From Eledone cirrhosa (lineage: Eukaryota), in assembly GCA_964016885.1 (NCBI GenBank), contig OZ024765.1:3162001-3226000 (forward strand): a stretch of DNA of 64,000 nucleotides, read 5' to 3'. Below the pieces are notes generated by a model, which saw only the letters and a program-made list of their open reading frames with translations, was not told the DNA's origin and made no database searches. A program made the position numbers and the translations under genes. This document shows, one piece after another, positions 14,821-64,000 of the stretch. Numbering within the stretch: the first letter of the stretch is position 1; every line of letters begins with the position of its first letter.

Positions 14821-14862
14821 AAAAACACACACGAAAAAACTTTACACGATTTCCACTGAAAC

Positions 14863-15278
14863 TTTTTTGCACACAATTTTGCGATTAAGTAAAGACGGAG
14901 TTATCGTTCTTGAGATTTCGGTTCGGAGAAATTTAAGGAACTGATGTCGCTAAATCGCCAAATCATTTACCTGCCCCGTTGCACCATGGGAGGGTAATGG
15001 CTGCTTTTTATTTTTTTTAAACCACGGCAGGTTTTTTAATTTCTTTCTCGTTAACTTGTTTTAATTCACTACTTATATAAAACAAGGAACAAGTTGGCGA
15101 AGAGGAAATTAAAAAAATCTGCCGTGGTTCAAAAAAATTAAAAGGCAGCCATTACCCTCCCATGGTGCAACGGGGCAGATTTGGCGATTTAGCGACATCA
15201 GTTCCTCAAATTACTCCGAGCCGAAATCTCAAGAACGATAACTCCGTCTTTACTTAATCGCAAAAATGGGTGCAAAAA
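14863..15278. mobile_element. foldback/MITE-like palindromic element, about 200-bp arms
   Basis: gcgattaagtaaagacggagttatcgttcttgagatttcgg...aacttgtt is mirrored by aacaagtt...ccgaaatctcaagaacgataactccgtctttacttaatcgc; loop about 25 nt. Confidence 0.9.
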
Positions 15279-15326
15279 TTATTTCGAATTTCTTAGTAAT
15301 TATTTGTATATTAAATTGTTTACATA

Positions 15327-17340: not shown

Positions 17341-17719
17341 AAGGGCGGTGCCCCAGCATGGCCTCAGCCGGATGGCTGAAACAGGTAAAAGAGTAAAAGA
17401 GAATCTTGATCATAATAAACTACAGTAACTTTATTTATCTTACAATTACAACTTTTATTTCGACATATTTCATTATTAAACAGTTAAAATAATGTTGACC
17501 AACACGCTAATCTTTATTAAATCTCCACATATTCACCGATGTTCAACAGATTCTACACACAAATCGTTAATAAAATACATATGTATATTTATTTATACAC
17601 ATGTATGTATAAATATATACATATATATAATATGTATAGCGCTAATTAATAAATATTTCCATCTGTGACGATCCGTACAACCAATAATAGTAGAAGACAC
17701 GTTAAAAAAATGCGTATAT

Positions 17720-18648: not shown

Positions 18649-18759
18649 ATATGTATATATATACATACATAGATAGATATACATATATATACATACATAT
18701 ACATGGATATACATGTATATATACATAGATATATATACATACATATATACATATAACTA

Positions 18760-19518
18760 GCTCATTCCATTGCACAGATGGTTCTATAGAAATAGTGGAC
18801 AGCTTCCGTTACCTGGGTGACAAAATCAGCAGTGGGGAAGGGTGCTCTGAGAGTACAGTAGCTAGAGTCAGAACGGGATGGAAAAAGTTCAGAGAGCTTA
18901 TACCACTATTAGCCGCTAAAGGGTTCTCCCTAAAAATGAAAGGCAGGCTGTATGATGCCTGCATACGAACAGCTATGTTGCATGGCAGTGAGACCTGGGC
19001 ATTGTGTGCAGAGGATATACGCAGACTAGAGAGAAACGAAGCTTGCATGCTCCGCTGGATGTGTAATAGTAATATACGTGAACGGCAAAGCATTAACGAA
19101 CTAAGGGAGATATTAGGAATAAGAGGGATCAGATGCTGTTTACTCGAGAGAAGACTACGTTGGTACGGTCACGTGATGCGCATGAAAGACGACAGCTGTA
19201 TAACAAAGTGCAGGGCAATAAAGATAGACGGTAGCCACGGAGTAGGAAGACCCAGAAAAACCTGGGACGACCTGATAAATTCCGACCTCACACGCTTACA
19301 CCTCTCCAAGACAATGTCACTGGACCGAGAACTTTGGCGGTACTCAGTAATAGAGAAGACCCGCCTTACCTAAATACAAAGTAAAACCTACTGAAGTCAG
19401 TAGGTATCTCTAACAAAATACACCCCCGTTCCACCACCACCACCCCATCCAATGTAAAGTTATGTTGGTGCCACAACATCCAGGCGGAAACAAATGAAAT
19501 CGTGTAGGCGTCACGACA
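18760..19518 (+). mobile_element. 5'-truncated RTE-like LINE (open frame 18795-19373) with 3' UTR
   Basis: VDSFRYLGD..., LYDACIRTAMLHGSETW, RRLRWYGHVMR, GRPRKTW motifs; 3' UTR homologous to 2436-2752. Confidence 0.93.
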
Positions 19519-19548
19519 AATATTAATTTTCAATGCATTTTTGTAACC

Positions 19549-19621
19549 GTCCCTGTGGCCTAATGGTAAGTACTAGAGACGGTGGAGATCCTGATTTAGG
19601 GTTCGATTTCCGTTAGGTTTT
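19549..19621 (+). ncRNA. tRNA-like Pol III module P0 (outside the first unit; near-identical to P1)
   Basis: A box TGGCCTAATGG 19556-19566, B box GGTTCGATTTC 19600-19610, TTTT at 19618; no cloverleaf. Expression unknown. Confidence 0.55.
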
Positions 19622-19691
19622 ATACTAATAACTGCGTATTTGCTGCTTTTAATATTTATAAAGTTACTTTTTTATTTTTGTTTTATACTAT

Positions 19692-19780
19692 AAAAAAATA
19701 TAATACGACACACTGCCAGTGATTGAACCCCGGACCTGGACCTCCACCGGCTCTTATACTTACCACTAGGCTAAAGGGAC
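19692..19780 (-). ncRNA. tRNA-like Pol III module M2 (one per unit)
   Basis: Minus strand GTCCCTTTAGCCTAGTGGTAAG...CCGGGGTTCAATCACTGG; A box 19773-19763, B box 19729-19719, T6-7 terminator, TATAAATA at -35 to -28. Confidence 0.55.
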
Positions 19781-19830
19781 GGTTACAGAAACTTACTTAA
19801 AAATTGATATTTATAAACCTACTTTTTCAT

Positions 19831-20005
19831 TACTAGAAAAAACCGGAAGTGGAGAAAATTGAAAAACATCTTCTTTTTCTTCCTCTGATTTTTTTTTATC
19901 CAAAATTTGGATTTAAGTCAGAGACGAGTTATCGTTCGTGGCAAAAATCAGAGGAAGAAAAAGAAGAAGTTTTTCAATTTTCTCCACTTCCGGTTTTTTC
20001 TAGTA
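19831..20005. repeat. 175-bp palindrome (63-bp arms, 1 mismatch, 49-nt loop), one per unit
   Basis: TACTAGAAAAAACCGGAAGTGG...GATTTTT and AAAAATC...CCACTTCCGGTTTTTTCTAGTA; further copies start at 24396, 28951, 33502, 38062, 42627, 47201, 51767, 56331, 60897. Confidence 0.97.
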
Positions 20006-20045
20006 TAGGTAAGTAAATATTAATTTTCAAAAAATGTTTGTAACC

Positions 20046-20118
20046 GTCCCTGTGGCCTAATGGTAAGCACTAGAGACGGTGGAGATCCTGATTTAGGGTT
20101 CGATTTCCGTTAGCTTTT
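20046..20118 (+). ncRNA. tRNA-like Pol III module P1 (one per unit)
   Basis: A box TGGCCTAATGG 20053-20063, B box GGTTCGATTTC 20097-20107, TTTT 20115-20118. Confidence 0.55.
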
Positions 20119-21974
20119 ATACTAATAACTGCGTATTTGTTTCTTTTATTAAGTAAGATTTGAACTAATAATGCTGTACTTTGTAGTAATGTCCCATATT
20201 ATATTCAACATATTTTAATTAGAATTTTTTTTTTTTATAAAAGAAAGAACAAAAAACCTTATTGAAATTAAGAAATGAATTTTATTCAGTAAAGTTGTTT
20301 TTATTTTGTTTTCACTTCATTAACTGCTGAATACGTCTTTTGTTTTTGTTTTTGATTCTTTCTAACCATTGTTTACTGTGAATGGTGACTGAACGAACCT
20401 GGATTATTACCAAGTTTCACTGGATGATTGTATTATTTTGTTGTCAGTGGACATCTGGACATCTATCTAAATACCTGGAATAAACACAAGGTGTGTGTTT
20501 TACGTAACATTTCATTTTAATGCCTGATGTTCCTGTATTTCACATTTAAAATGTAACCAAAAATAAACAAGACAGGGACGCTACATCAAAATAAACCACA
20601 CAGACGAGGTACGAATAATCTAAAATTAATTTTAACAAACTATAAACGATGTTTAAAGAGAGACGAACATTAAAATAGGATTTCAAACAAACACGTAAAC
20701 ACAAAGACAATTACAGCCGCCATAATCTAATATCTGAAGATCAACATTTTTCACGATAGAAATAAAACTAAATATGTAAAGTTTAGTGGCCCCTGATTTA
20801 CTTGCTTTTAATTTCATTTTGATAATCTGTATTCTGTAGACATATATTTATGATTTTAATGATGAAATTTCCTCTTGTCTTTAAAAGATTATTACTTATA
20901 AAAATTATAATAGTCACCTCCTCCTCTCGATTAATATGTAGCTTACCCACAGGGGTTCCTCAATTGGGCGGTTTCAACTGTTGGGTGCGCGATGAGCAGC
21001 TGAACAGAAAATTGAGGGCCATTGGAAACTTTGGTGGCCGATATAGAATTTTGAGATTTAAGAAGGTATGCTACCCGAAAACCTATTCAAGGAATATATG
21101 CAAAGAACCTGAATAAATATCAGGAAGCTAATTGGGAAAATTAAACCAGGAACAAACATTTACGAAACATATTTGGTATACTTTGGAATATTTACTATAC
21201 AGGTGGCTGCTGGAACATTTTTTCATGTGAATGTGGGAAATGACGCCAAAATATTTGGCAACCCTTGGCTTACACCTTACTAAATGTTCTGGAGACAAGC
21301 CTCTTCGCTATATATCATAGTTCTTCAATCCTTCCTCTTCCACAGTTGGTGAAGTATTTCGATTTGATATGACGATCGCAGAGTTAGATTTAGGACGTGG
21401 TGGCGTTCATGGGTTTCTTAGTGTTGTTACTAGAAAGGGTCGACTCTGTCTTTCACACTTCAGGTTTTTTCATGAATTAAATATCCATTTTCTTTCTGAT
21501 CGGTCTAACAATGATTTCAACCTACAATGACTCCGTCTGTAATAATGTTCTCTTATTTGAAATATGCCATACCTAACTCCCGTGTCTGTGTGTGTGAAAA
21601 ATATTCCAACTTAGAGCGACGTGCCCGTAAATTGTTTAGCCTGATTCCTATATATAGATAATGTGTAATATTTGAACCTTCATGGAGGGTCTTTGCCGTA
21701 ATTTCCCGTAACTCCGACTAGAAGTCATTATGTAGTTTTTTCGTCCGTTAAAAATAATGATTAAAACAATTCTATATCCACAGTTATATACACCTCATCA
21801 CATATTATATTATTTCCACCAATAACTACATTATATCCTTAAATATGACACCAAGACATATAATTTGTAAATAAAAGATAAAATATTAAAACCTCAATTT
21901 TTAAATAATTTTACCCCACCTTTGTGTTCTCAGTGTTTAGATTAACCCATAATTTTATGATTTTGGAGCATATA

Positions 21975-22062
21975 ACTTATAGTACCAGTCATGTACTGGT
22001 ATCAATTTAACGGATTGGTTCCTCCCCGCAAATTACTTGACTTTTGCCTAAGTAAGACATAC
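21975..22062 (+). mobile_element. decayed SINE 3' half (one per unit)
   Basis: agtaccagtcatgtactgg...aaattacttgacttttgcctaagtaagac resembles the SINE tail aagtaccagt...aattgctggccttgtgcctaaagtagaaac. Confidence 0.65.
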
Positions 22063-22439
22063 TCACAGAATGTATCGATGTATATGTATGAATGTTTATA
22101 TATATTAGTATATTTCATGTTTACAATAATAATAGACAAACAATTTAATGATAATATGAAATGAAATTATTATTATTTATTAATAATATTTTTATTGTTT
22201 TCACTGCATTAACTTCTGAGTGTGACTTTGTTTTTCTTACTATTTTCTACTGTAAATGGCGGCTTAATTGGATTATTACTAAGGTTTACTGGATTGTGGT
22301 GTTTCTTTATTGTTTTATATTTCAATCAGTGGACATCAGGATAGCTTTCTATATACCTGGGATAAATGTAAACAGTACTGACTTTCATCTGCAGTTCAAT
22401 GGTGATGTCTTCTTATATTTTCATTTACTTCTGCAATAC

Positions 22440-23170
22440 TGTATATTGTAGTCTTTTCATTATTTTAAATATTTCTATCATGTCACTCGTTTGATATATC
22501 TCCCCGAAAGATATAGTTATTCAGAGCTTTACATTGGAATAGTGTACTACTATTTAAATATTAGTCCTTTAAATATATATTTCTATCATGTCCCCCCCCC
22601 CCCCCCTCTTAGATTTATCTCCTCTAAATTTGCAATCCCTAAAGTTTAACATCTTTCTTTAGAAGACAGATTTCTTAATAATTCTGGTGTTTTCTGTTTT
22701 GTTCTTTTCTGGATTCCTTCAATAGCTTCTCCGTATTTTCTGAAGTCGTCTGACCATGCCCCCAAAACAATATTCTAGGTCGTATCACACATATCATTCA
22801 ACTAGTGTTTTAGACCTCTCGACATTTAGCTAGGCAAAGGAATGTTTTATTATTCCTATCATCTGAATTCCTTTTTTTTCTTCAACATGTTTAGCCATCT
22901 TTAAAATCATATTCATACATATTCACAATTCCTCGTGGAGGGGTATAAGAGACATGTATAAATATAGCTGCATATTACTACAAAATAACTTGAACCATAT
23001 CGCGAAACATTTTGTAAAGTATCTCTGTAATTATTCTCATTTCGATTTTCTGTAGAATGTATTGACGTTTAAGATAGAGACAATTGCCCTTCTTCTAATA
23101 ATCTCTTTGTCCATTCCATGTTTAGTCTCACAAAATATTGTTAATGCAAGATTTTGCTCTAATGTAATAA
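22440..23170 (-). mobile_element. old CR1 LINE ORF2 relic (one per unit)
   Basis: Minus strand, with stops and frameshifts: MIGIIKHSFA*L...LEYC..AWS..FRKYGEAIEGIQKR....PELLRNLSSKER..TLGIANLEE..LRG DMIEI, matching the CR1 pattern MLGIIKRSF...LEYC..AWSP...IE.VQRR...LSYEERL..L.L..LE.RRLRGDMIE. Confidence 0.8.
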
Positions 23171-23346
23171 ATGTTACTTTTAAAAGACCGAAGTTCTCAA
23201 TTTTCTTCTTTCTCTTGTATATTGATATCTAAAGGATGACAAATGTATGAATTATGTGATAGGGAGGAGAAAAAAGCCACGACCTTCTTCTCTCGTTACA
23301 GAAGGCTAACTGACAACGTCTTTCGCAGGAGTGACTAGTACTACTG

Positions 23347-23357
23347 CCTTTTATATA
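23347..23357 (-). promoter_or_regulatory. candidate TATA box (one per unit)
   Basis: TATATAAAAGG on the minus strand in a GC-richer patch, preceded by two TTGTCACG motifs and GATAAG; Inr-like TCACT and TCAGTT lie downstream at non-ideal spacing. Confidence 0.35.
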
Positions 23358-23954
23358 CCGTGACAACTGGAAAGACGTGACAAATAAGGATACACTCTGC
23401 TCTCCTTATCAACATTGTCCGAGTCTGAGGACCTTTCCTCCCTGGTTAAGGAGTGAGATAAAATATTAGGGATCAATCTCTAGCAATAATTTCATTAAAT
23501 CATATTTAACCAGAGACTGTTATGTCGTGGTTGTTGCTATATTTTATAGTCGTGGTTTCAATGTTTAACAGGGGTTGTAGAATTAGCTTTATCTAATTAT
23601 TATCAAACAAAACAGATTTATATATTGTCGCCGTTGTACGTTAAAATCACATATATATTTATATACACACCAAGGATGGAGGGACGACGGAATTGAAAAC
23701 CATTATTGCTGAGTACATCACGGCAAGATCTAATACACACACACTCTCCCGTATATATTTAATAATCAGCTATGACCATGAAGAAGGTCCCTGTAGATCA
23801 TCTGGTTGTAGGATCTAATGAACCCGAAAGAAAGTGAAAATATATTTTATGAAAGCCCCAGAAGAATAAATGTAAACATTGACCCGATTATAGTAGAAAT
23901 AACAATGAGAAAGCCATGAACGCCAGCACATCTATTTTGCTTGGAAATTAAAAG

Positions 23955-24075
23955 TAGGTTTATAAATATTAATTTTTTCTTATGTTCTTGTATCTGTTTG
24001 GTAGGTGTTAGAGACTATGTAGACACTGATGTGGTGTTCAATCTCAGTCCGAATCTGTACTATATATTTTTAAAT
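23955..24075 (+). other. degenerate tRNA-like module P2 (one per unit)
   Basis: gtaggtttataaatattaattt...tggtaggtgttagagac...gttcaatctcagtc aligns with M1/M2 and their upstream flank; A box mostly deleted. Confidence 0.55.
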
Positions 24076-24097
24076 TAAAATTTTTCTCTAGTAAAGT

Positions 24098-24192
24098 AAA
24101 AAATGAAATTATTATCTATAGACTTTGACTGAAATCGAAACCCAGAGCAGGTTCTCCACCGTCTCTAATACCTACCATTAGGCCACGGAGAC
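24098..24192 (-). ncRNA. tRNA-like Pol III module M1 (one per unit)
   Basis: Minus strand GTCTCCGTGGCCTAATGGTAGG...GGGTTTCGATTTC; A box 24185-24175, variant B box 24141-24131, T6 terminator, TATAAATA at -34 to -27. Confidence 0.5.
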
Positions 24193-27100
24193 AGATATGA
24201 AAACAGTGTGTAAATTAATATTTATAAAGTTACTTTTTTATTTTTGTTTTATACTATAAAAAATATAATACGACACACTGCCAGTGATTGAACCCCGGAC
24301 CTGGACCTCCACCGGCTCTTATACTTACCACTAGGCTAAAGGGACGGTTACAGAAACTTATTTAAAAATTGATATTTATAAACCTACTTTTTCATTACTA
24401 GAAAAAACCGGAAGTGGAGAAAATTGAAAAACATCTTCTTTTTCTTCCTCTGATTTTTTTTTATCCAAAATTTGGATTTAAGTCAGAGACGAGTTATCGT
24501 TCGTGGCAAAAATCAGAGGAAGAAAAAGAAGAAGTTTTTCAATTTTCTCCACTTCCGGTTTTTTCTAGTATAGGTAAGTAAATATTAATTTTCAAAAAAT
24601 TTTTGTAACCGTCCCTGTGGCCTAATGGTAAGCACTAGAGACGGTGGAGATCCTGATTTAGGGTTCGATTTCCGTTAGCTTTTATACTAATAACTGCGTA
24701 TTTGTTTCTTTTATTAAGTAAGATTTGAACTAATAATGCTGTACTTTGTAGTAATGTCCCATATTATATTCAACATATTTTAATTAGAATTTTTTTTTTT
24801 TATAAAAGAAAGAACAAAAAACCTTATTGAAATTAAGAAATGAATTTTATTCAGTAAAGTTGTTTTTATTTTGTTTTCACTTCATTAACTGCTGAATACG
24901 TCTTTTGTTTTTGTTTTTGATTCTTTCTAACCATTGTTTACTGTGAATGGTGACTGCAACGAACCTGGATTATTACCAAGTTTCACTGGATGATTGTATT
25001 ATTTTGTTGTCAGTGGACATCTGGACATCTATCTAAATACCTGGAATAAACACAAGGTGTGTGTTTTACGTAACATTTCATTTTAATGTCTGATGTTCCT
25101 GTATTTCACATTTAAAATGTAACCAAAAATAAACAAGACAGGGACGCTACATCAAAATAAACCACACAGACGAGGTACGAATAATCTAAAATTAATTTTA
25201 ACAAACTATAAACGATGTTTAAAGAGAGACGAACATTAAAATAGGATTTCAAACAAACACGTAAACACAAAGACAATTACAGCCGCCATAATCTAATATC
25301 TGAAGATCAACATTTTTCACGATAGAAATAAAACTAAATATGTAAAGTTTAGTGGCCCCTGATTTACTTGCTTTTAATTTCATTTTGATAATCTGTATTC
25401 TGTAGACATATATTTATGATTTTAATGATGAAATTTCCTCTTGTCTTTAAAAGATTATTACTTATAAAAATTATAATAGTCACCTCCTCCTCTCGATTAA
25501 TATGTAGCTTACCCACAGGGGTTCCTCAATTGGGCGGTTTCAACTGTTGGGTGCGCGATGAGCAGCTGAACAGAAAATTGAGGGCCATTGGAAACTTTGG
25601 TGGCCGATATAGAATTTTGAGATTTAAGAAGGTATGCTACCCGAAAACCTATTCAAGGAATATATGCAAAGAACCTGAATAAATATCAGGAAGCTAATTG
25701 GGAAAATTAAACCAGGAACAAACATTTACGAAACATATTTGGTATACTTTGGAATATTTACTATACAGGTGGCTGCTGGAACATTTTTTCATGTGAATGT
25801 GGGAAATGACGCCAAAATATTTGGCAACCCTTGGCTTACACCTTACTAAATGTTCTGGAGACAAGCCTCTTCGCTATATATCATAGTTCTTCAATCCTTC
25901 CTCTTCCACAGTTGGTGAAGTATTTCGATTTGATATGACGATCGCAGAGTTAGATTTAGGACGTGGTGGCGTTCATGGGTTTCTTAGTGTTGTTACTAGA
26001 AAGGGTCGACTCTGTCTTTCACACTTCAGGTTTTTTCATGAATTAAATATCCATTTTCTTTCTGATCGGTCTAACAATGATTTCAACCTACAATGACTCC
26101 GTCTGTAATAATGTTCTCTTATTTGAAATATGCCATACCTAACTCCCGTGTCTGTGTGTGTGAAAAATATTCCAACTTAGAGCGACGTGCCCGTAAATTG
26201 TTTAGCCTGATTCCTATATATAGATAATGTGTAATATTTGAACCTTCATGGAGGGTCTTTGCCGTAATTTCCCGTAACTCCGACTAGAAGTCATTATGTA
26301 GTTTTTTCGTCCGTTAAAAATAATGATTAAAACAATTCTATATCCACAGTTATATACACCTCATCACATATTATATTATTTCCACCAATAACTACATTAT
26401 ATCCTTAAATATGACACCAAGACATATAATTTGTAAATAAAAGATAAAATATTAAAACCTCAATTTTTAAATAATTTTACCCCACCTTTGTGTTCTCAGT
26501 GTTTAGATTAACCCATAATTTTATGATTTTGGAGCATATAACTTATAGTACCAGTCATGTACTGGTATCAATTTAACGGATTGGTTCCTCCCCGCAAATT
26601 ACTTGACTTTTGCCTAAGTAAGACATACTCACAGAATGTATCGATGTATATGTATGAATGTTTATATATATTAGTATATTTCATGTTTACAATAATAATA
26701 GACAAACAATTTAATGATAATATGAAATGAAATTATTATTATTTATTAATAATATTTTTATTGTTTTCACTGCATTAACTTCTGAGTGTGACTTTGTTTT
26801 TCTTACTATTTTCTACTGTAAATGGCGGCTTAATTGGATTATTACTAAGGTTTACTGGATTGTGGTGTTTCTTTATTGTTTTATATTTCAATCAGTGGAC
26901 ATCAGGATAGCTTTCTATATACCTGGGATAAATGTAAACAGTACTGACTTTCATCTGCAGTTCAATGGTGATGTCTTCTTATATTTTCATTTACTTCTGC
27001 AATACTGTATATTGTAGTCTTTTCATTATTTTAAATATTTCTATCATGTCACTCGTTTGATATATCTCCCCGAAAGATATAGTTATTCAGAGCTTTACAT

Positions 27101-30100
27101 TGGAATAGTGTACTACTATTTAAATATTAGTCCTTTAAATATATATTTCAATCATGTCCCCCCCCCCCCCCTCTTAGATTTATCTCCTCTAAATTTGCAA
27201 TCCCTAAAGTTTAACATCTTTCTTTAGAAGACATAATTCTGGTGTTTTCTGTTTTGTTCTTTTCTGGATTCCTTCAATAGCTTCTCCGTATTTTCTGAAG
27301 TCGTCTGACCATGCCCCCAAAACAATATTCTAGGTCGTATCACACATATCATTCAACTAGTGTTTTAGACCTCTCGACATTTAGCTAGGCAAAGGAATGT
27401 TTTATTATTCCTATCATCTGAATTCCTTTTTTTTCTTCAACATGTTTAGCCATCTTTAAAATCATATTCATACATATTCACAATTCCTCGTGGAGGGGTA
27501 TAAGAGACATGTATAAATATAGCTGCATATTACTACAAAATAACTTGAACCATATCGCGAAACATTTTGTAAAGTATCTCTGTAATTATTCTCATTTCGA
27601 TTTTCTGTAGAATGTATTGACGTTTAAGATAGAGACAATTGCCCTTCTTCTAATAATCTCTTTGTCCATTCCATGTTTAGTCTCACAAAATATTGTTAAT
27701 GCAAGATTTTGCTCTAATGTAATAAATGTTACTTTTAAAAGACCGAAGTTCTCAATTTTCTTCTTTCTCTTGTATATTGATATCTAAAGGATGACAAATG
27801 TATGAATTATGTGATAGGGAGGAAAAAAAAGCCACGACCTTCTTCTCTCGTTACAGAAGGCTAACTGACAACGTCTTTCGCAGGAGTGACTAGTACTACT
27901 GCCTTTTATATACCGTGACAACTGGAAAGACGTGACAAATAAGGATACACTCTGCTCTCCTTATCAACATTGTCCGAGTCTGAGGACCTTTCCTCCCTGG
28001 TTAAGGAGTGAGATAAAATATTAGGGATCAATCTCTAGCAATAATTTCATTAAATCATATTTAACCAGAGACTGTTATGTCGTGGTTGTTGCTATATTTT
28101 ATAGTCGTGGTTTCAATGTTTAACAGGGGTTGTAGAATTAGCTTTATCTAATTATTATCAAACAAAACAGATTTATATATTGTCGCCGTTGTACGTTAAA
28201 ATCACATATATATTTATATACACACCAAGGATGGAGGGACGACGGAATTGAAAACCATTATTGCTGAGTACATCACGGCAAGATCTAATACACACACACT
28301 CTCCCGTATATATTTAATAATCAGCTATGACCATGAAGAAGGTCCCTGTAGATCATCTGGTTGTAGGATCTAATGAACCCGAAAGAAAGTGAAAATATAT
28401 TTTATGAAAGCCCCAGAAGAATAAATGTAAACATTGACCCGATTATAGTAGAAATAACAATGAGAAAGCCATGAACGCCAGCACATCTATTTTGCTTGGA
28501 AATTAAAAGTAGGTTTATAAATATTAATTTTTTCTTATGTTCTTGTATCTGTTTGGTAGGTGTTAGAGACTATGTAGACACTGATGTGGTGTTCAATCTC
28601 AGTCCGAATCTGTACTATATATTTTTAAATTAAAATTTTTCTCTAGTAAAGTAAAAAATGAAATTATTATCTATAGACTTTGACTGAAATCGAAACCCAG
28701 AGCAGGTTCTCCACCGTCTCTAATACCTACCATTAGGCCACGGAGACAGATATGAAAACAGTGTGTAAATTAATATTTATAAAGTTACTTTTTTATTTTT
28801 GTTTTATACTATAAAAAATATAATACGACACACTGCCAGTGATTGAACCCCGGACCTGGACCTCCACCGGCTCTTATACTTACCACTAGGCTAAAGGGAC
28901 GGTTACAGAAACTTACTTAAAAATTGATATTTATAAACCTACTTTTTCATTACTAGAAAAAACCGGAAGTGGAGAAAATTGAAAAACATCTTCTTTTTCT
29001 TCCTCTGATTTTTTTTTATCCAAAATTTGGATTTAAGTCAGAGACGAGTTATCGTTCGTGGCAAAAATCAGAGGAAGAAAAAGAAGAAGTTTTTCAATTT
29101 TCTCCACTTCCGGTTTTTTCTAGTATAGGTAAGTAAATATTAATTTTCAAAAAATTTTTGTAACCGTCCCTGTGGCCTAATGGTAAGCACTAGAGACGGT
29201 GGAGATCCTGATTTAGGGTTCGATTTCCGTTAGCTTTTATACTAATAACTGCGTATTTGTTTCTTTTATTAAGTAAGATTTGAACTAATAATGCTGTACT
29301 TTGTAGTAATGTCCCATATTATATTCAACATATTTTAATTAGAATTTTTTTTTTTTATAAAAGAAAGAACAAAAAACCTTATTGAAATTAAGAAATGAAT
29401 TTTATTCAGTAAAGTTGTTTTTATTTTGTTTTCACTTCATTAACTGCTGAATACGTCTTTTGTTTTTGTTTTTGATTCTTTCTAACCATTGTTTACTGTG
29501 AATGGTGACTGCAACGAACCTGGATTATTACCAAGTTTCACTGGATGATTGTATTATTTTGTTGTCAGTGGACATCTGGACATCTATCTAAATACCTGGA
29601 ATAAACACAAGGTGTGTGTTTTACGTAACATTTCATTTTAATGTCTGATGTTCCTGTATTTCACATTTAAAATGTAACCAAAAATAAACAAGACAGGGAC
29701 GCTACATCAAAATAAACCACACAGACGAGGTACGAATAATCTAAAATTAATTTTAACAAACTATAAACGATGTTTAAAGAGAGACGAACATTAAAATAGG
29801 ATTTCAAACAAACACGTAAACACAAAGACAATTACAGCCGCCATAATCTAATATCTGAAGATCAACATTTTTCACGATAGAAATAAAACTAAATATGTAA
29901 AGTTTAGTGGCCCCTGATTTACTTGCTTTTAATTTCATTTTGATAATCTGTATTCTGTAGACATATATTTATGATTTTAATGATGAAATTTCCTCTTGTC
30001 TTTAAAAGATTATTACTTATAAAAATTATAATAGTCACCTCCTCCTCTCGATTAATATGTAGCTTACCCACAGGGGTTCCTCAATTGGGCGGTTTCAACT

Positions 30101-33100
30101 GTTGGGTGCGCGATGAGCAGCTGAACAGAAAATTGAGGGCCATTGGAAACTTTGGTGGCCGATATAGAATTTTGAGATTTAAGAAGGTATGCTACCCGAA
30201 AACCTATTCAAGGAATATATGCAAAGAACCTGAATAAATATCAGGAAGCTAATTGGGAAAATTAAACCAGGAACAAACATTTACGAAACATATTTGGTAT
30301 ACTTTGGAATATTTACTATACAGGTGGCTGCTGGAACATTTTTTCATGTGAATGTGGGAAATGACGCCAAAATATTTGGCAACCCTTGGCTTACACCTTA
30401 CTAAATGTTCTGGAGACAAACCTCTTCGCTATATATCATAGTTCTTCAATCCTTCCTCTTCCACAGTTGGTGAAGTATTTCGATTTGATATGACGATCGC
30501 AGAGTTAGATTTAGGACGTGGTGGCGTTCATGGGTTTCTTAGTGTTGTTACTAGAAAGGGTCGACTCTGTCTTTCACACTTCAGGTTTTTTCATGAATTA
30601 AATATCCATTTTCTTTCTGATCGGTCTAACAATGATTTCAACCTACAATGACTCCGTCTGTAATAATGTTCTCTTATTTGAAATATGCCATACCTAACTC
30701 CCGTGTCTGTGTGTGTGAAAAATATTCCAACTTAGAGCGACGTGCCCGTAAATTGTTTAGCCTGATTCCTATATATAGATAATGTGTAATATTTGAACCT
30801 TCATGGAGGGTCTTTGCCGTAATTTCCCGTAACTCCGACTAGAAGTCATTATGTAGTTTTTTCGTCCGTTAAAAATAATGATTAAAACAATTCTATATCC
30901 ACAGTTATATACACCTCATCACATATTATATTATTTCCACCAATAACTACATTATATCCTTAAATATGACACCAAGACATATAATTTGTAAATAAAAGAT
31001 AAAATATTAAAACCTCAATTTTTAAATAATTTTACCCCACCTTTGTGTTCTCAGTGTTTAGATTAACCCATAATTTTATGATTTTGGAGCATATAACTTA
31101 TAGTACCAGTCATGTACTGGTATCAATTTAACGGATTGGTTCCTCCCCGCAAATTACTTGACTTTTGCCTAAGTAAGACATACTCACAGAATGTATCGAT
31201 GTATATGTATGAATGTTTATATATATTAGTATATTTCATGTTTACAATAATAATAGACAAACAATTTAATGATAATATGAAATGAAATTATTATTATTTA
31301 TTAATAATATTTTTATTGTTTTCACTGCATTAACTTCTGAGTGTGACTTTGTTTTTCTTACTATTTTCTACTGTAAATGGCGGCTTAATTGGATTATTAC
31401 TAAGGTTTACTGGATTGTGGTGTTTCTTTATTGTTTTATATTTCAATCAGTGGACATCAGGATAGCTTTCTATATACCTGGGATAAATGTAAACAGTACT
31501 GACTTTCATCTGCAGTTCAATGGTGATGTCTTCTTATATTTTCATTTACTTCTGCAATACTGTATATTGTAGTCTTTTCATTATTTTAAATATTTCTATC
31601 ATGTCACTCGTTTGATATATCTCCCCGAAAGATATAGTTATTCAGAGCTTTACATTGGAATAGTGTACTACTATTTAAATATTAGTCCTTTAAATATATA
31701 TTTCAATCATGTCCCCCCCCCCCCCCTCTTAGATTTATCTCCTCTAAATTTGCAATCCCTAAAGTTTAACATCTTTCTTTAGAAGACAGATTTCTTAATA
31801 ATTCTGGTGTTTTCTCTTTTGTTCTTTTCTGGATTCCTTCAATAGCTTCTCCGTATTTTCTGAAGTCGTCTGACCATGCCCCCAAAACAATATTCTAGGT
31901 CGTATCACACATATCATTCAACTAGTGTTTTAGACCTCTCGACATTTAGCTAGGCAAAGGAATGTTTTATTATTCCTATCATCTGAATTCCTTTTTTTTC
32001 TTCAACATGTTTAGCCATCTTTAAAATCATATTCATACATATTCACAATTCCTCGTGGAGGGGTATAAGAGACATGTATAAATATAGCTGCATATTACTA
32101 CAAAATAACTTGAACCATATCGCGAAACATTTTGTAAAGTATCTCTGTAATTATTCTCATTTCGATTTTCTGTAGAATGTATTGACGTTTAAGATAGAGA
32201 CAATTGCCCTTCTTCTAATAATCTCTTTGTCCATTCCATGTTTAGTCTCACAAAATATTGTTAATGCAAGATTTTGCTCTAATGTAATAAATGTTACTTT
32301 TAAAAGACCGAAGTTCTCAATTTTCTTCTTTCTCTTGTATATTGATATCTAAAGGATGACAAATGTATGAATTATGTGATAGGGAGGAAAAAAAAGCCAC
32401 GACCTTCTTCTCTCGTTACAGAAGGCTAACTGACAACGTCTTTCGCAGGAGTGACTAGTACTACTGCCTTTTATATACCGTGACAACTGGAAAGACGTGA
32501 CAAATAAGGATACACTCTGCTCTCCTTATCAACATTGTCCGAGTCTGAGGACCTTTCCTCCCTGGTTAAGGAGTGAGATAAAATATTAGGGATCAATCTC
32601 TAGCAATAATTTCATTAAATCATATTTAACCAGAGACTGTTATGTCGTGGTTGTTGCTATATTTTATAGTCGTGGTTTCAATGTTTAACAGGGGTTGTCT
32701 AATTATTATCAAACAAAACAGATTTATATATTGTCGCCGTTGTACGTTAAAATCACATATATATTTATATACACACCAAGGATGGAGGGACGACGGAATT
32801 GAAAACCATTATTGCTGAGTACATCACGGCAAGATCTAATACACACACACTCTCCCGTATATATTTAATAATCAGCTATGACCATGAAGAAGGTCCCTGT
32901 AGATCATCTGGTTGTAGGATCTAATGAACCCGAAAGAAAGTGAAAATATATTTTATGAAAGCCCCAGAAGAATAAATGTAAACATTGACCCGATTATAGT
33001 AGAAATAACAATGAGAAAGCCATGAACGCCAGCACATCTATTTTGCTTGGAAATTAAAAGTAGGTTTATAAATATTAATTTTTTCTTATGTTCTTGTATC

Positions 33101-36100
33101 TGTTTGGTAGGTGTTAGAGACTATGTAGACACTGATGTGGTGTTCAATCTCAGTCCGAATCTGTACTATATATTTTTAAATTAAAATTTTTCTCTAGTAA
33201 AGTAAAAAATGAAATTATTATCTATAGACTTTGACTGAAATCGAAACCCAGAGCAGGTTCTCCACCGTCTCTAATACCTACCATTAGGCCACGGAGACAG
33301 ATATGAAAACAGTGTGTAAATTAATATTTATAAAGTTACTTTTTTATTTTTGTTTTATACTATAAAAAATATAATACGACACACTGCCAGTGATTGAACC
33401 CCGGACCTGGACCTCCACCGGCTCTTATACTTACCACTAGGCTAAAGGGACGGTTACAGAAACTTACTTAAAAATTGATATTTATAAACCTACTTTTTCA
33501 TTACTAGAAAAAACCGGAAGTGGAGAAAATTGAAAAACATCTTCTTTTTCTTCCTCTGATTTTTTTTTATCCAAAATTTGGATTTAAGTCAGAGACGAGT
33601 TATCGTTCGTGGCAAAAATCAGAGGAAGAAAAAGAAGAAGTTTTTCAATTTTCTCCACTTCCGGTTTTTTCTAGTATAGGTAAGTAAATATTAATTTTCA
33701 AAAAATTTTTGTAACCGTCCCTGTGGCCTAATGGTAAGCACTAGAGACGGTGGAGATCCTGATTTAGGGTTCGATTTCCGTTAGCTTTTATACTAATAAC
33801 TGCGTATTTGTTTCTTTTATTAAGTAAGATTTGAACTAATAATGCTGTACTTTGTAGTAATGTCCCATATTATATTCAACATATTTTAATTAGAATTTTT
33901 TTTTTTATAAAAGAAAGAACAAAAAACCTTATTGAAATTAAGAAATGAATTTTATTCAGTAAAGTTGTTTTTATTTTGTTTTCACTTCATTAACTGCTGA
34001 ATACGTCTTTTGTTTTTGTTTTTGATTCTTTCTAACCATTGTTTACTGTGAATGGTGACTGCAACGAACCTGGATTATTACCAAGTTTCACTGGATGATT
34101 GTATTATTTTCTTGTCAGTGGACATCTGGACATCTATCTAAATACCTGGAATAAACACAAGGTGTGTGTTTTACGTAACATTTCATTTTAATGTCTGATG
34201 TTCCTGTATTTCACATTTAAAATGTAACCAAAAATAAACAAGACAGGGACGCTACATCAAAATAAACCACACAGACGAGGTACGAATAATCTAAAATTAA
34301 TTTTAACAAACTATAAACGATGTTTAAAGAGAGACGAACATTAAAATAGGATTTCAAACAAACACGTAAACACAAAGACAATTACAGCCGCCATAATCTA
34401 ATATCTGAAGATCAACATTTTTCACGATAGAAATAAAACTAAATATGTAAAGTTTAGTGGCCCCTGATTTACTTGCTTTTAATTTCATTTTGATAATCTG
34501 TATTCTGTAGACATATATTTATGATTTTAATGATGAAATTTCCTCTTGTCTTTAAAAGATTATTACTTATAAAAATTATAATAGTCACCTCCTCCTCTCG
34601 ATTAATATGTAGCTTACCCACAGGGGTTCCTCAATTGGGCGGTTTCAACTGTTGGGTGCGCGATGAGCAGCTGAACAGAAAATTGAGGGCCATTGGAAAC
34701 TTTGGTGGCCGATATAGAATTTTGAGATTTAAGAAGGTATGCTACCCGAAAACCTATTCAAGGAATATATGCAAAGAACCTGAATAAATATCAGGAAGCT
34801 AATTGGGAAAATTAAACCAGGAACAAACATTTACGAAACATATTTGGTATACTTTGGAATATTTACTATACAGGTGGCTGCTGGAACATTTTTTCATGTG
34901 AATGTGGGAAATGACGCCAAAATATTTGGCAACCCTTGGCTTACACCTTACTAAATGTTCTGGAGACAAGCCTCTTCGCTATATATCATAGTTCTTCAAT
35001 CCTTCCTCTTCCACAGTTGGTGAAGTATTTCGATTTGATATGACGATCGCAGAGTTAGATTTAGGACGTGGTGGCGTTCATGGGTTTCTTAGTGTTGTTA
35101 CTAGAAAGGGTCGACTCTGTCTTTCACACTTCAGGTTTTTTCATGAATTAAATATCCATTTTCTTTCTGATCGGTCTAACAATGATTTCAACCTACAATG
35201 ACTCCGTCTGTAATAATGTTCTCTTATTTGAAATATGCCATACCTAACTCCCGTGTCTGTGTGTGTGAAAAATATTCCAACTTAGAGCGACGTGCCCGTA
35301 AATTGTTTAGCCTGATTCCTATATATAGATAATGTGTAATATTTGAACCTTCATGGAGGGTCTTTGCCGTAATTTCCCGTAACTCCGACTAGAAGTCATT
35401 ATGTAGTTTTTTCGTCCGTTAAAAATAATGATTAAAACAATTCTATATCCACAGTTATATACACCTCATCACATATTATATTATTTCCACCAATAACTAC
35501 ATTATATCCTTAAATATGACACCAAGACATATAATTTGTAAATAAAAGATAAAATATTAAAACCTCAATTTTTAAATAATTTTACCCCACCTTTGTGTTC
35601 TCAGTGTTTAGATTAACCCATAATTTTATGATTTGGGAGCATATAACTTATAGTACCAGTCATGTACTGGTATCAATTTAACGGATTGGTTCCTCCCCGC
35701 AAATTACTTGACTTTTGCCTAAGTAAGACATACTCACAGAATGTATCGATGTATATGTATGAATGTTTATATATATTAGTATATTTCATGTTTACAATAA
35801 TAATAGACAAACAATTTAATGATAATATGAAATGAAATTATTATTATTTATTAATAATATTTTTATTGTTTTCACTGCATTAACTTCTGAGTGTGACTTT
35901 GTTTTTCTTACTATTTTCTACTGTAAATGGCGGCTTAATTGGATTATTACTAAGGTTTACTGGATTGTGGTGTTTCTTTATTGTTTTATATTTCAATCAG
36001 TGGACATCAGGATAGCTTTCTATATACCTGGGATAAATGTAAACAGTACTGACTTTCATCTGCAGTTCAATGGTGATGTCTTCTTATATTTTCATTTACT

Positions 36101-39100
36101 TCTGCAATACTGTATATTGTAGTCTTTTCATTATTTTAAATATTTCTATCATGTCACTCGTTTGATATATCTCCCCGAAAGATATAGTTATTCAGAGCTT
36201 TACATTGGAATAGTGTACTACTATTTAAATATTAGTCCTTTAAATATATATTTCTATCATGTCCCCCCCCCCTCTTAGATTTATCTCCTCTAAATTTGCA
36301 ATCCCTAAAGTTTAACATCTTTCTTTAGAAGACAGATTTCTTAATAATTCTGGTGTTTTCTGTTTTGTTCTTTTCTGGATTCCTTCAATAGCTTCTCCGT
36401 ATTTTCTGAAGTCGTCTGACCATGCCCCCAAAACAATATTCTAGGTCGTATCACACATATCATTCAACTAGTGTTTTAGACCTCTCGACATTTAGCTAGG
36501 CAAAGGAATGTTTTATTATTCCTATCATCTGAATTCCTTTTTTTTCTTCAACATGTTTAGCCATCTTTAAAATCATATTCATACATATTCACAATTCCTC
36601 GTGGAGGGGTATAAGAGACATGTATAAATATAGCTGCATATTACTACAAAATAACTTGAACCATATCGCGAAACATTTTGTAAAGTATCTCTGTAATTAT
36701 TCTCATTTCGATTTTCTGTAGAATGTATTGACGTTTAAGATAGAGACAATTGCCCTTCTTCTAATAATCTCTTTGTCCATTCCATGTTTAGTCTCACAAA
36801 ATATTGTTAATGCAAGATTTTGCTCTAATGTAATAAATGTTACTTTTAAAAGACCGAAGTTCTCAATTTTCTTCTTTCTCTTGTATATTGATATCTAAAG
36901 GATGACAAATGTATGAATTATGTGATAGGGAGGAAAAAAAAGCCACGACCTTCTTCTCTCGTTACAGAAGGCTAACTGACAACGTCTTTCGCAGGAGTGA
37001 CTAGTACTACTGCCTTTTATATACCGTGACAACTGGAAAGACGTGACAAATAAGGATACACTCTGCTCTCCTTATCAACATTGTCCGAGTCTGAGGACCT
37101 TTCCTCCCTGGTTAAGGAGTGAGATAAAATATTAGGGATCAATCTCTAGCAATAATTTCATTAAATCATATTTAACCAGAGACTGTTATGTCGTGGTTGT
37201 TGCTATATTTTATAGTCGTGGTTTCAATGTTTAACAGGGGTTGTAGAATTAGCTTTATCTAATTATTATCAAACAAAACAGATTTATATATTGTCGCCGT
37301 TGTACGTTAAAATCACATATATATTTATATACACACCAAGGATGGAGGGACGACGGAATTGAAAACCATTATTGCTGAGTACATCACGGCAAGATCTAAT
37401 ACACACACACTCTCCCGTATATATTTAATAATCAGCTATGACCATGAAGAAGGTCCCTGTAGATCATCTGGTTGTAGGATCTAATGAACCCGAAAGAAAG
37501 TGAAAATATATTTTATGAAAGCCCCAGAAGAATAAATGTAAACATTGACCCGATTATAGTAGAAATAACAATGAGAAAGCCATGAACGCCAGCACATCTA
37601 TTTTGCTTGGAAATTAAAAGTAGGTTTATAAATATTAATTTTTTCTTATGTTCTTGTATCTGTTTGGTAGGTGTTAGAGACTATGTAGACACTGATGTGG
37701 TGTTCAATCTCAGTCCGAATCTGTACTATATATTTTTAAATTAAAATTTTTCTCTAGTAAAGTAAAAAATGAAATTATTATCTATAGACTTTGACTGAAA
37801 TCGAAACCCAGAGCAGGTTCTCCACCGTCTCTAATACCTACCATTAGGCCACGGAGACAGATATGAAAACAGTGTGTAAATTAATATTTATAAAGTTACT
37901 TTTTTATTTTTGTTTTATACTATAAAAAATATAATACGACACACTGCCAGTGATTGAACCCCGGACCTGGACCTCCACCGGCTCTTATACTTACCACTAG
38001 GCTAAAGGGACGGTTACAGAAACTTACTTAAAAATTGATATTTATAAACCTACTTTTTCATTACTAGAAAAAACCGGAAGTGGAGAAAATTGAAAAACAT
38101 CTTCTTTTTCTTCCTCTGATTTTTTTTTATCCAAAATTTGGATTTAAGTCAGAGACGAGTTATCGTTCGTGGCAAAAATCAGAGGAAGAAAAAGAAGAAG
38201 TTTTTCAATTTTCTCCACTTCCGGTTTTTTCTAGTATAGGTAAGTAAATATTAATTTTCAAAAAATTTTTGTAACCGTCCCTGTGGCCTAATGGTAAGCA
38301 CTAGAGACGGTGGAGATCCTGATTTAGGGTTCGATTTCCGTTAGCTTTTATACTAATAACTGCGTATTTGTTTCTTTTATTAAGTAAGATTTGAACTAAT
38401 AATGCTGTACTTTGTAGTAATGTCCCATATTATATTCAACATATTTTAATTAGAATTTTTTTTTTTTATAAAAGAAAGAACAAAAAACCTTATTGAAATT
38501 AAGAAATGAATTTTATTCAGTAAAGTTGTTTTTATTTTGTTTTCACTTCATTAACTGCTGAATACGTCTTTTGTTTTTGTTTTTGATTCTTTCTAACCAT
38601 TGTTTACTGTGAATGGTGACTGCAACGAACCTGGATTATTACCAAGTTTCACTGGATGATTGTATTATTTTGTTGTCAGTGGACATCTGGACATCTATCT
38701 AAATACCTGGAATAAACACAAGGTGTGTGTTTTACGTAACATTTCATTTTAATGTCTGATGTTCCTGTATTTCACATTTAAAATGTAACCAAAAATAAAC
38801 AAGACAGGGACGCTACATCAAAATAAACCACACAGACGAGGTACGAATAATCTAAAATTAATTTTAACAAACTATAAACGATGTTTAAAGAGAGACGAAC
38901 ATTAAAATAGGATTTCAAACAAACACGTAAACACAAAGACAATTACAGCCGCCATAATCTAATATCTGAAGATCAACATTTTTCACGATAGAAATAAAAC
39001 TAAATATGTAAAGTTTAGTGGCCCCTGATTTACTTGCTTTTAATTTCATTTTGATAATCTGTATTCTGTAGACATATATTTATGATTTTAATGATGAAAT

Positions 39101-42100
39101 TTCCTCTTGTCTTTAAAAGATTATTACTTATAAAAATTATAATAGTCACCTCCTCCTCTCGATTAATATGTAGCTTACCCACAGGGGTTCCTCAATTGGG
39201 CGGTTTCAACTGTTGGGTGCGCGATGAGCAGCTGAACAGAAAATTGAGGGCCATTGGAAACTTTGGTGGCCGATATAGAATTTTGAGATTTAAGAAGGTA
39301 TGCTACCCGAAAACCTATTCAAGGAATATATGCAAAGAACCTGAATAAATATCAGGAAGCTAATTGGGAAAATTAAACCAGGAACAAACATTTACGAAAC
39401 ATATTTGGTATACTTTGGAATATTTACTATACAGGTGGCTGCTGGAACATTTTTTCATGTGAATGTGGGAAATGACGCCAAAATATTTGGCAACCCTTGG
39501 CTTACACCTTACTAAATGTTCTGGAGACAAGCCTCTTCGCTATATATCATAGTTCTTCAATCCTTCCTCTTCCACAGTTGGTGAAGTATTTCGATTTGAT
39601 ATGACGATCGCAGAGTTAGATTTAGGACGTGGTGGCGTTCATGGGTTTCTTAGTGTTGTTACTAGAAAGGGTCGACTCTGTCTTTCACACTTCAGGTTTT
39701 TTCATGAATTAAATATCCATTTTCTTTCTGATCGGTCTAACAATGATTTCAACCTACAATGACTCCGTCTGTAATAATGTTCTCTTATTTGAAATATGCC
39801 ATACCTAACTCCCGTGTCTGTGTGTGTGAAAAATATTCCAACTTAGAGCGACGTGCCCGTAAATTGTTTAGCCTGATTCCTATATATAGATAATGTGTAA
39901 TATTTGAACCTTCATGGAGGGTCTTTGCCGTAATTTCCCGTAACTCCGACTAGAAGTCATTATGTAGTTTTTTCGTCCGTTAAAAATAATGATTAAAACA
40001 ATTCTATATCCACAGTTATATACACCTCATCACATATTATATTATTTCCACCAATAACTACATTATATCCTTAAATATGACACCAAGACATATAATTTGT
40101 AAATAAAAGATAAAATATTAAAACCTCAATTTTTAAATAATTTTACCCCACCTTTGTGTTCTCAGTGTTTAGATTAACCCATAATTTTATGATTTGGGAG
40201 CATATAACTTATAGTACCAGTCATGTACTGGTATCAATTTAACGGATTGGTTCCTCCCCGCAAATTACTTGACTTTTGCCTAAGTAAGACATACTCACAG
40301 AATGTATCGATGTATATGTATGAATGTTTATATATATTAGTATATTTCATGTTTACAATAATAATAGACAAACAATTTAATGATAATATGAAATGAAATT
40401 ATTATTATTTATTAATAATATTTTTATTGTTTTCACTGCATTAACTTCTGAGTGTGACTTTGTTTTTCTTACTATTTTCTACTGTAAATGGCGGCTTAAT
40501 TGGATTATTACTAAGGTTTACTGGATTGTGGTGTTTCTTTATTGTTTTATATTTCAATCAGTGGACATCAGGATAGCTTTCTATATACCTGGGATAAATG
40601 TAAACAGTACTGACTTTCATCTGCAGTTCAATGGTGATGTCTTCTTATATTTTCATTTACTTCTGCAATACTGTATATTGTAGTCTTTTCATTATTTTAA
40701 ATATTTCTATCATGTCACTCGTTTGATATATCTCCCCGAAAGATATAGTTATTCAGAGCTTTACATTGGAATAGTGTACTACTATTTAAATATTAGTCCT
40801 TTAAATATATATTTCTATCATGTCCCCCCCCCCCCCCTCTTAGATTTATCTCCTCTAAATTTGCAATCCCTAAAGTTTAACATCTTTCTTTAGAAGATAG
40901 ATTTCTTAATAATTCTGGTGTTTTCTGTTTTGTTCTTTTCTGGATTCCTTCAATAGCTTCTCCGTATTTTCTGAAGTCGTCTGACCATGCCCCCAAAACA
41001 ATATTCTAGGTCGTATCACACATATCATTCAACTAGTGTTTTAGACCTCTCGACATTTAGCTAGGCAAAGGAATGTTTTATTATTCCTATCATCTGAATT
41101 CCTTTTTTTTCTTCAACATGTTTAGCCATCTTTAAAATCATATTCATACATATTCACAATTCCTCGTGGAGGGGTATAAGAGACATGTATAAATATAGCT
41201 GCATATTACTACAAAATAACTTGAACCATATCGCGAAACATTTTGTAAAGTATCTCTGTAATTATTCTCATTTCGATTTTCTGTAGAATGTATTGACGTT
41301 TAAGATAGAGACAATTGCCCTTCTTCTAATAATCTCTTTGTCCATTCCATGTTTAGTCTCACAAAATATTGTTAATGCAAGATTTTGCTCTAATGTAATA
41401 AATGTTACTTTTAAAAGACCGAAGTTCTCAATTTTCTTCTTTCTCTTGTATATTGATATCTAAAGGATGACAAATGTATGAATTATGTGATAGGGAGGAA
41501 AAAAAAGCCACGACCTTCTTCTCTCGTTACAGAAGGCTAACTGACAACGTCTTTCGCAGGAGTGACTAGTACTACTGCCTTTTATATACCGTGACAACTG
41601 GAAAGACGTGACAAATAAGGATACACTCTGCTCTCCTTATCAACATTGTCCGAGTCTGAGGACCTTTCCTCCCTGGTTAAGGAGTGAGATAAAATATTAG
41701 GGATCAATCTCTAGCAATAATTTCATTAAATCATATTTAACCAGAGACTGTTATGTCGTGGTTGTTGCTATATTTTATAGTCGTGGTTTCAATGTTTAAC
41801 AGGGGTTGTAGAATTAGCTTTATCTAATTATTATCAAACAAAACAGATTTATATATTGTCGCCGTTGTACGTTAAAATCACATATATATTTATATACACA
41901 CCAAGGATGGAGGGACGACGGAATTGAAAACCATTATTGCTGAGTACATCACGGCAAGATCTAATACACACACACTCTCCCGTATATATTTAATAATCAG
42001 CTATGACCATGAAGAAGGTCCCTGTAGATCATCTGGTTGTAGGATCTAATGAACCCGAAAGAAAGTGAAAATATATTTTATGAAAGCCCCAGAAGAATAA

Positions 42101-63100: not shown

Positions 63101-64000
63101 TTACTTGACTTTTGCCTAAGTAAGACATACTCACAGAATGTATCGATGTATATGTATGAATGTATATATATATTAGTATATTTTATGTTTACAATAAAAA
63201 TAGACAAACAATTTAATGATAATATGAAATGAAATTATTATTATTTATTAATAATATTTTTATTGTTTTCACTGCATTAACTTCTGAGTGTGACTTTGTT
63301 TTTCTTACTATTTTCTACTGTAAATGGCGGCTTAATTGGATTATTACTAAGGTTTACTGGATTGTGGTGTTTCTTTATTGTTTTATATTTCAATCAGTGG
63401 ACATCAGGATAGCTTTCTATATACCTGGGATAAATGTAAACAGTACTGACTTTCATCTGCAGTTCAATGGTGATGTCTTCTTATATTTTCATTTACTTCT
63501 GCAATACTGTATATTGTAGTCTTTTCATTATTTTAAATATTTCTATCATGTCACTCGTTTGATATATCTCCCCGAAAGATATAGTTATTCAGAGCTTTAC
63601 ATTGGAATAGTGTACTACTATTTAAATATTAGTCCTTTAAATATATATTTCTATCATGTCCCCCCCCCCCCTCTTAGATTTATCTCCTCTAAATTTGCAA
63701 TCCCTAAAGTTTAACATCTTTCTTTAGAAGACAGATTTCTTAATAATTCTGGTGTTTTCTGTTTTGTTCTTTTCTGGATTCCTTCAATAGCTTCTCCGTA
63801 TTTTCTGAAGTCGTCTGACCATGCCCCCAAAACAATATTCTAGGTCGTATCACACATATCATTCAACTAGTGTTTTAGACCTCTCGACATTTAGCTAGGC
63901 AAAGGAATGTTTTATTATTCCTATCATCTGAATTCCTTTTTTTTCTTCAACATGTTTAGCCATCTTTAAAATCATATTCATACATATTCACAATTCCTCG

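Follow-up and report, generated by a model that had tools for sequence, protein, structure and literature searches.

Candidate RNA polymerase III mini-genes with conserved promoter elements in tandem arrays, a DNA transposon and solo copies of Eledone cirrhosa

Introduction

Lineage-specific short RNA products of RNA polymerase III (Pol III) are described in several mammals. The rodent 4.5SH genes have A and B boxes and also, near -31/-24, a TATA-like box, give an RNA of about 94 nt that is expressed and functional, and are present in hundreds, each gene lying in a tandem repeat of 4-5 kb, while the tRNA/B2-related rodent 4.5SI RNA of about 98 nt has a type-2 promoter that depends on a TATA-like box and, in the parts of the same source drawn on here, is encoded in mouse and rat by no more than three genes (PMC10137851). 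In great apes the snaR Pol III mini-genes, which are Alu-derived and number about 30, lie in a duplication core that segmental duplication has spread into tandem arrays, and have retroposed relatives, with the expression and a protein partner known (PMC3045588). Among mobile elements, the TRIMp3 elements Helenus and Cassandra carry tRNA-like Pol III promoters and form tandem arrays, and are built with LTRs, direct repeats, PBS/PPT and TSDs of 4-5 bp (PMC10886601).

Here we analyse a family of modules found in the window, a stretch of 64,000 nucleotides (G000:C26:3162001-3226000) within the 3.0-Gb Eledone cirrhosa assembly. The modules resemble 4.5SH in having A and B boxes, a TATA motif, a similar size and hundreds of genes in a tandem repeat of similar length. 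By contrast, 4.5SH derives from 7SL/B1, whereas the modules are tRNA-like, occur as four diverged genes per unit in convergent order with dozens of paralogues, and are known here from sequence alone. They are like 4.5SI in relatedness to tRNA, promoter and size but without a sequence match in Rfam, and like snaR in the combination of tandem arrays with retroposed-looking relatives, although a DNA-transposon carrier is not described for snaR in the passages of PMC3045588 used here. Like TRIMp3 they join a tRNA-like promoter to mobility and tandem arrays, but they sit as an inverted pair in a carrier with TIRs and apparent 8-bp TSDs. The octopus SINEs also have a tRNA-like head with A and B boxes, and the solo copies of the modules, like SINEs, appear retroposed; the two are set apart in that the modules have neither a body nor a LINE-derived tail and in that most module copies keep the promoter flank, which SINE copies do not. 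These tRNA-derived SINEs include OR1 and OK. OR2 is named in PMC4758252. In the literature searched, mostly freely accessible papers, no account of the module family was found.

Results

The tandem array and its unit

From 19.5 kb onward the window consists of head-to-tail copies of one unit with a between-copy identity of 98-100%. The features of the array and of the cassette at 23,955 to 24,690 are as follows, with window coordinates.

19518..64000, no strand: tandem array with a unit of about 4.56 kb, 10 cassettes in the window
19518..19651, plus: additional copy of P1, where the array is rearranged at its left edge
23953..23975, plus: P2 upstream element including TATAAATA (23961-23968)
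23991..24071, plus: P2 mini-gene, A box deleted in the window array, B box and T5 terminator kept
24098..24198, minus: M1 mini-gene, A box 24185-24175, B box 24141-24131, T6 24103-24098
24212..24234, minus: M1 upstream element including TATAAATA (24226-24219), zero substitutions in 12 other arrays
24258..24351, minus: M2 mini-gene, A box 24338-24328, B box 24294-24284, T6 24263-24258
24366..24389, minus: M2 upstream element including TATAAATA (24380-24373)
24396..24570, no strand: foldback/MITE-type element, internally deleted, 63-nt arms
24571..24595, plus: damaged P1 upstream element, TATAAATA lost beside the foldback element
24605..24712, plus: P1 mini-gene, A box 24618-24628, B box 24662-24672
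27230..27510, minus: likely decayed LINE reverse-transcriptase remnant (weak tblastn, motif-like six-frame reading)

The whole array has 13 cassettes and ends near G000:C26:3,239,100, where it gives way to older paralogous units. Because the unit junction, which is tandem, is also contained in public contigs, the array is not an assembly artefact. A non-module 31-mer that marks the unit has 160 exact matches genome-wide, and the 100 listed all lie inside arrays on C18, C20, C22 and C26. An earlier sequence-only reading had proposed a cassette of mini-genes amplified about ten-fold. Ten cassettes are indeed present in the window, but what has been amplified is the whole 4.56-kb unit. The same reading counted about 30 copies of the RNA family, which does not hold: since the amplified thing is a near-identical unit, the window copies (10 of M1, 10 of M2, 11 of P1 and 9 of P2) represent four distinct sequences, and the whole family is far larger than 30.

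The unit has no long ORF, its two short ORFs are without Pfam match, and no protein gene was found in it; on these grounds a virus or parvovirus-like concatemer was rejected. The putative LINE remnant, which we presume to be of CR1/L2 type, gives weak tblastn scores (E 0.025-0.048) in four paralogous loci. An internally duplicated segment on the plus strand (24930-25060 and 26810-26940) is 70-80% kept among the paralogues and has a possible splice donor and a YY1-like motif, and it might represent a first exon or a promoter for Pol II; its frames are broken in most copies and a Pfam search of it gave no match. Outside the array, LINE reverse-transcriptase fragments lie at 15900-17400 and 18729-19373, the second adjoining the array start on the left, and a repeat near 18.1 kb has the look of an octopus SINE.

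Anatomy of the cassette

The order P2(+), M1(-), M2(-), palindrome, P1(+) read earlier is borne out, as is the presence of TATAAATA upstream of P2, M1 and M2. The A box and the B box stand at tRNA spacing, with 34 nt in P1 and M2, and the B box of M1 departs from the canonical form by one base, a T in place of G. T-runs had been placed shortly after the B boxes of M1, M2 and P1; they are present in all three (24680-24683 in P1; P2 has one at 24067-24071), but those of M1 and M2 lie 20-30 nt downstream of the box. For this reason the predicted RNAs are about 75-100 nt long instead of the 70-95 nt suggested before. The predicted start of M1 is at 24196-24198 on the minus strand and that of M2 at about 24349-24351, and P1 has a further T4 run at 24709-24712.

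In the window array M1 and M2 are intact, while P2 is without the A box and P1 without the TATA motif. P2 is probably inactive here; 9 of the 13 arrays that were compared have its A box unbroken. The pattern of TATA, A box and B box, itself written from the modules, occurs twice per unit and in none of 3000 shuffles.

The palindrome, around which the cassette had been described, is not part of its design, as seen from the older paralogues, which have no palindrome, and from the presence of the same element in an unrelated array on C22, where its copies are longer (about 330 bp). In the window its arms (24396-24458 and 24508-24570) are 63 nt long and 98% identical. The palindrome is missing from a paralogue on C15 that has three modules on the minus strand. 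On C18 P1 points the same way as M1 and M2 do, the foldback element lying immediately upstream, and relative to that arrangement the P1-plus-foldback segment of the window is inverted. Judging from these paralogues, the palindrome is a later, separate foldback insertion that broke the TATA motif of P1. A pre-miRNA or leader was also considered for the palindrome and rejected in favour of the foldback element, all Rfam hairpin matches being sub-threshold. It is noted that a palindromic MITE-like element of about 420 bp lies at 14860-15290 of the window, with a core that by eye resembles the centre of the cassette palindrome.

Family size, settings and carrier

Genome-wide, the core pattern of the modules has 603 exact matches, compared with 0 for the reversed control, and the pattern including the upstream element has 247. 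The family is found in four kinds of place: in young arrays, in clusters of older paralogues, as convergent pairs carried by a hAT-like DNA transposon, and as solo copies. Of 67 dispersed loci, all taken from the first 100 matches listed, 48 hold a convergent module pair within a repeat of about 1 kb, 18 are solo and one is a cluster. The 18 solo loci start at +1 without promoter flank, which may point to a SINE-like mode of dispersal.

Both 14-bp TIRs flank the convergent pair in 7 of the 20 loci read with 3-kb flanks. At these seven loci 6-8 of the 8 flanking bases are duplicated, mostly in TA-rich DNA, and at one of them (L228) 7 of 8 are duplicated in non-TA DNA. Because of the 14-bp inverted termini and the duplicated flanking bases, the carrier of the convergent pairs appears to be a non-autonomous transposon of hAT type, the superfamily being deduced from these features. 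An older relative of this repeat (L193:3740-5000, at G000:C26:1.55 Mb) has the same left end and two diverged convergent module pairs.

Paralogues of the entire unit that are older, with an identity of 65-80%, are found on C15, C18, C20, C22, C24, C25 and C26, and in them one to three tandem modules face another. In a tree of 57 modules, which is star-like, few of the deep forks have support. At two further places (L066, G000:C3:300.677 Mb; L082, G000:C13:34.452 Mb) solo modules form short head-to-tail runs with periods of 106 bp and 93-95 bp and without TATA flanks, as if one RNA-length unit had been recopied.

Other repeats of related kind were seen elsewhere in the genome. The C22 arrays, with a period of 6.2-7.1 kb, hold another TATA-A-B-T mini-gene (L243:5872-5956 and L244:6660-6745, both minus) that scores about 13 bits to the module family and 18.6 bits, below cut-off, to tRNA; this macrosatellite has 115 exact matches, of which the 100 listed are all on C22, and has the same foldback element inside. 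Its unit also has a GC-rich stretch of 130-160 nt behind an AT-rich motif (L243:6150-6310, minus; also L244, L246 and L257), with two B-box-like motifs and a T-run downstream, which is possibly a further Pol III gene, vault-like in anatomy; Rfam gave no match for it and its fold is not better than that of shuffles. On C19 (31.78-31.84 Mb, L109-L116) at least 30 U6 snRNA genes with variant 5' sequence follow one another in tandem at a period of about 1.8 kb, and ten loci (L033 and L035-L043) are dispersed near-perfect tRNA-like repeats with common upstream flanks and varying anticodons, a further repeat in which a tRNA-like gene travels together with its flank.

Conservation of the promoter elements

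Conservation was measured in 43 non-redundant modules, after 12 of 55 had been dropped as solo, truncated, indel-rich or near-duplicate; in alignment A1 one further module was exchanged for the M1 of the window. The mean column identity is highest in the 23-nt upstream element (0.93), followed by the A box and the B box (0.81 each), the DNA between the boxes (0.72), the spacer (0.57), the far upstream DNA (0.50) and the 3' part (0.43). The identity of the upstream element is 0.94 in 17 modules whose loci were picked without the TATA pattern and 0.89 in 24 modules that fail this pattern; 52 of the 55 modules recovered by a body-only profile have the element. It is rich in A and T, and gene conversion, or a role as duplication breakpoint, could homogenise it. 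Among the copies, boxes have also been lost (the A box of P2, the TATA motif of P1), and 9 variable sites fall in 6 boxes. It had been argued at the outset that a match to a catalogued high-copy MITE or SINE with neutral decay of the boxes would speak against a gene family: the modules do ride a high-copy non-autonomous DNA transposon, but their boxes decay less than the neighbouring DNA.

Class of the modules and fold of the predicted RNA

As expected in the sequence-only reading, ARAGORN makes no tRNA call and Rfam gives no match at gathering score; with RF00005 the modules have no match at E<=10. The modules are therefore not tRNA genes: there is no cloverleaf, and the acceptor and anticodon stems do not pair, as had been noticed. 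The D stem, by contrast, which had also been held unpaired, does pair in M1 and pairs in 85% of cells across 42 paralogues. The modules have the elements of a type-2 Pol III gene, namely A and B boxes at tRNA spacing, a TATA motif about 30 nt upstream and oligo-T. In 40 of 43 modules a T4 run lies no more than 45 nt from the B box, such runs being easily formed in AT-rich DNA. The absence of a SINE body or tail also holds, since the solo copies stop at or before the terminator and have no common tail. The TRIMp3 (Helenus) arrangement is not found, the modules being inverted within a TIR-bounded element rather than placed in direct LTRs. Vault or Y RNA does not fit, as there is no Rfam match and the 5' end of the module pairs with the middle of the RNA. 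The 7SL/Alu ancestry that marks 4.5SH and snaR in mammals is not seen, given the lack of an Rfam match and the non-mammalian genome, and the likeness is organisational only. In a comparison with 31 tRNA-like sequences from 13 loci as possible parents, the best scores, all modest, are to SINE-like heads and to tRNA-Thr/Arg, and no parent could be assigned from them.

RNAalifold gave no consensus structure and no covariation support for a module fold; neither of two named structures beats shuffles, and compensatory excess is absent. None of the four modules of the window beats its shuffles in folding (z between -1.45 and +0.64). The near-consensus module L088 forms a double hairpin with z=-5.5, equalled by 0 of 200 shuffles. 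Over 42 modules the mean z is -1.07, with z<-2 in 9, and the pairing probability of the 5' stem exceeds 0.5 in 19. After single-side changes, 5' pairs are kept in 49 of 113 cases compared with 36.5 expected (p about 0.009, not corrected for phylogeny).

Signs of transcription

All 17 solo copies of M1, M2 and P1 that were read are without the TATA flank. Their 5' ends lie 4-9 nt before the first G in 12 cases, the other 5 being 5'-truncated, and their 3' ends lie at or before the terminator in 15 and beyond it in 2. They have no poly(A) tails and often abut (TA)n, where microhomology blurs the boundaries. The U6 genes of the same genome have a TATA motif about 30 nt upstream, and because U6-like spacing places the module start 4-9 nt before the first G, the 5' ends of the solo copies coincide with the predicted start. 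Ten of 139 M1 matches are solo on C1-C14, compared with 0 of 160 on C1-C17 for the control, which is a single 31-mer (p=0.0004).

In 13 young arrays the M1, M2 and P1 bodies have 46 variable sites in 267, compared with 153 in 1621 for the flanks (p=0.0003, the sites not being independent), and the excess also holds at A/T sites. P2 was excluded since its deletion disturbs the alignment; with P2 the counts are 60 in 324 and 153 in 1620. Raised mutation at transcribed tRNA loci is reported in PMC6130373. Together, the solo copies and the raised variability of the bodies suggest recent germ-line Pol III transcription of the modules.

Discussion

The reading that we consider probable, with some reserve, is that the modules are Pol III genes for RNAs of about 75-100 nt, with selection acting chiefly on their transcription while individual copies are born and die. 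TFIIIC would bind the A and B boxes and TFIIIB the near-invariant upstream element; transcription would start about 28-30 nt past the TATA motif and stop at the first T-run; and selection would fall chiefly on the promoter, the RNA being under weak selection only. Of three modes of spread, segmental or tandem duplication of a block of 4.5-7 kb is directly observed, carriage of the convergent pair in a non-autonomous DNA transposon is seen in its anatomy, with hAT-like as the presumed superfamily, and the RNA may occasionally have been reverse-transcribed and inserted. As in 4.5SH, many tandem copies could supply the dose of a short RNA while single copies turn over. The conserved promoter, the retrocopy-like solo copies and the variable bodies thus favour the Pol III RNA family proposed earlier, at a size far above the 30 copies then supposed.

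The evidence has also to be weighed under a reading in which the modules are selfish mobile DNA, that is, an old element with a convergent Pol III pair and a SINE-like monomer, the arrays being passive and the promoter being kept for the spread of the element or by gene conversion. The predominance of the transposon type among the sampled dispersed loci (48 of 67), the older relative sharing the left end, the LINE remnants and the foldback element in the unit, the module bodies without covariation and the equal amplification of the unrelated C22 macrosatellite are all what it expects. It is less able to explain why modules of the clusters, which are 20-30% diverged and form a star-like tree, yet keep an upstream element with an identity of 0.89-0.94, or why tandem triplets keep exactly the TATA motif and the module; moreover, the cluster loci that were looked at showed neither TIRs nor transposase, in a TIR search that was not exhaustive. 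We regard this reading as unlikely. Conservation of the promoter elements but not of the RNA fold, together with the periodic arrangement of the modules, could also arise if their role were in the DNA, with TFIIIC/TFIIIB sites and Pol III traffic acting as periodic chromatin boundaries and the RNA being a by-product; B boxes can have boundary activity. However, nothing is seen that would be insulated, searches of the unit gave no protein gene, the terminators and the start-site spacing are kept as in real genes, and an array of insulators only, as had been offered as an alternative, does not account for the conserved TATA motif, the terminators and the solo copies, so that we give the boundary role a very small chance.

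The RNA itself might instead be a structured tRNA mimic in which a 5' hairpin with D loop and a 3' hairpin with T loop form an elbow without anticodon and acceptor parts, binding a protein that recognises tRNA or dsRNA. The double hairpin of L088, the retention of 5' pairs after single-side changes and a similar 5' hairpin folded by one of two variants of the C22 family are consistent with it, but the small fraction of modules with z<-2, the 5' stem being probable in fewer than half of them and the lack of compensatory excess make it the least likely of the readings considered here. Returning to the Pol III genes selected chiefly for transcription, a stronger form can be stated, in which the modules are the invertebrate counterpart of 4.5SH and snaR: a functional, abundant, lineage-specific Pol III RNA with a D/T-loop double hairpin lacking anticodon and acceptor, and hundreds of tRNA-derived genes that birth and death maintain in macrosatellites, C22 having another family of independent origin, and with pairs spread by a DNA transposon. 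This form we hold to be possible but doubtful.

Conclusion

Exact predictions of start and stop follow for the predicted RNAs. If the RNA is junk, the family remains a clean case of promoter-only conservation. It is chiefly mammals from which lineage-specific Pol III RNAs of tandem macrosatellites have been described, as with 4.5SH and snaR, and the module family of Eledone cirrhosa would be one in which tRNA-derived genes pass from one setting to another, be it gene cluster, satellite, DNA transposon or retrocopy.
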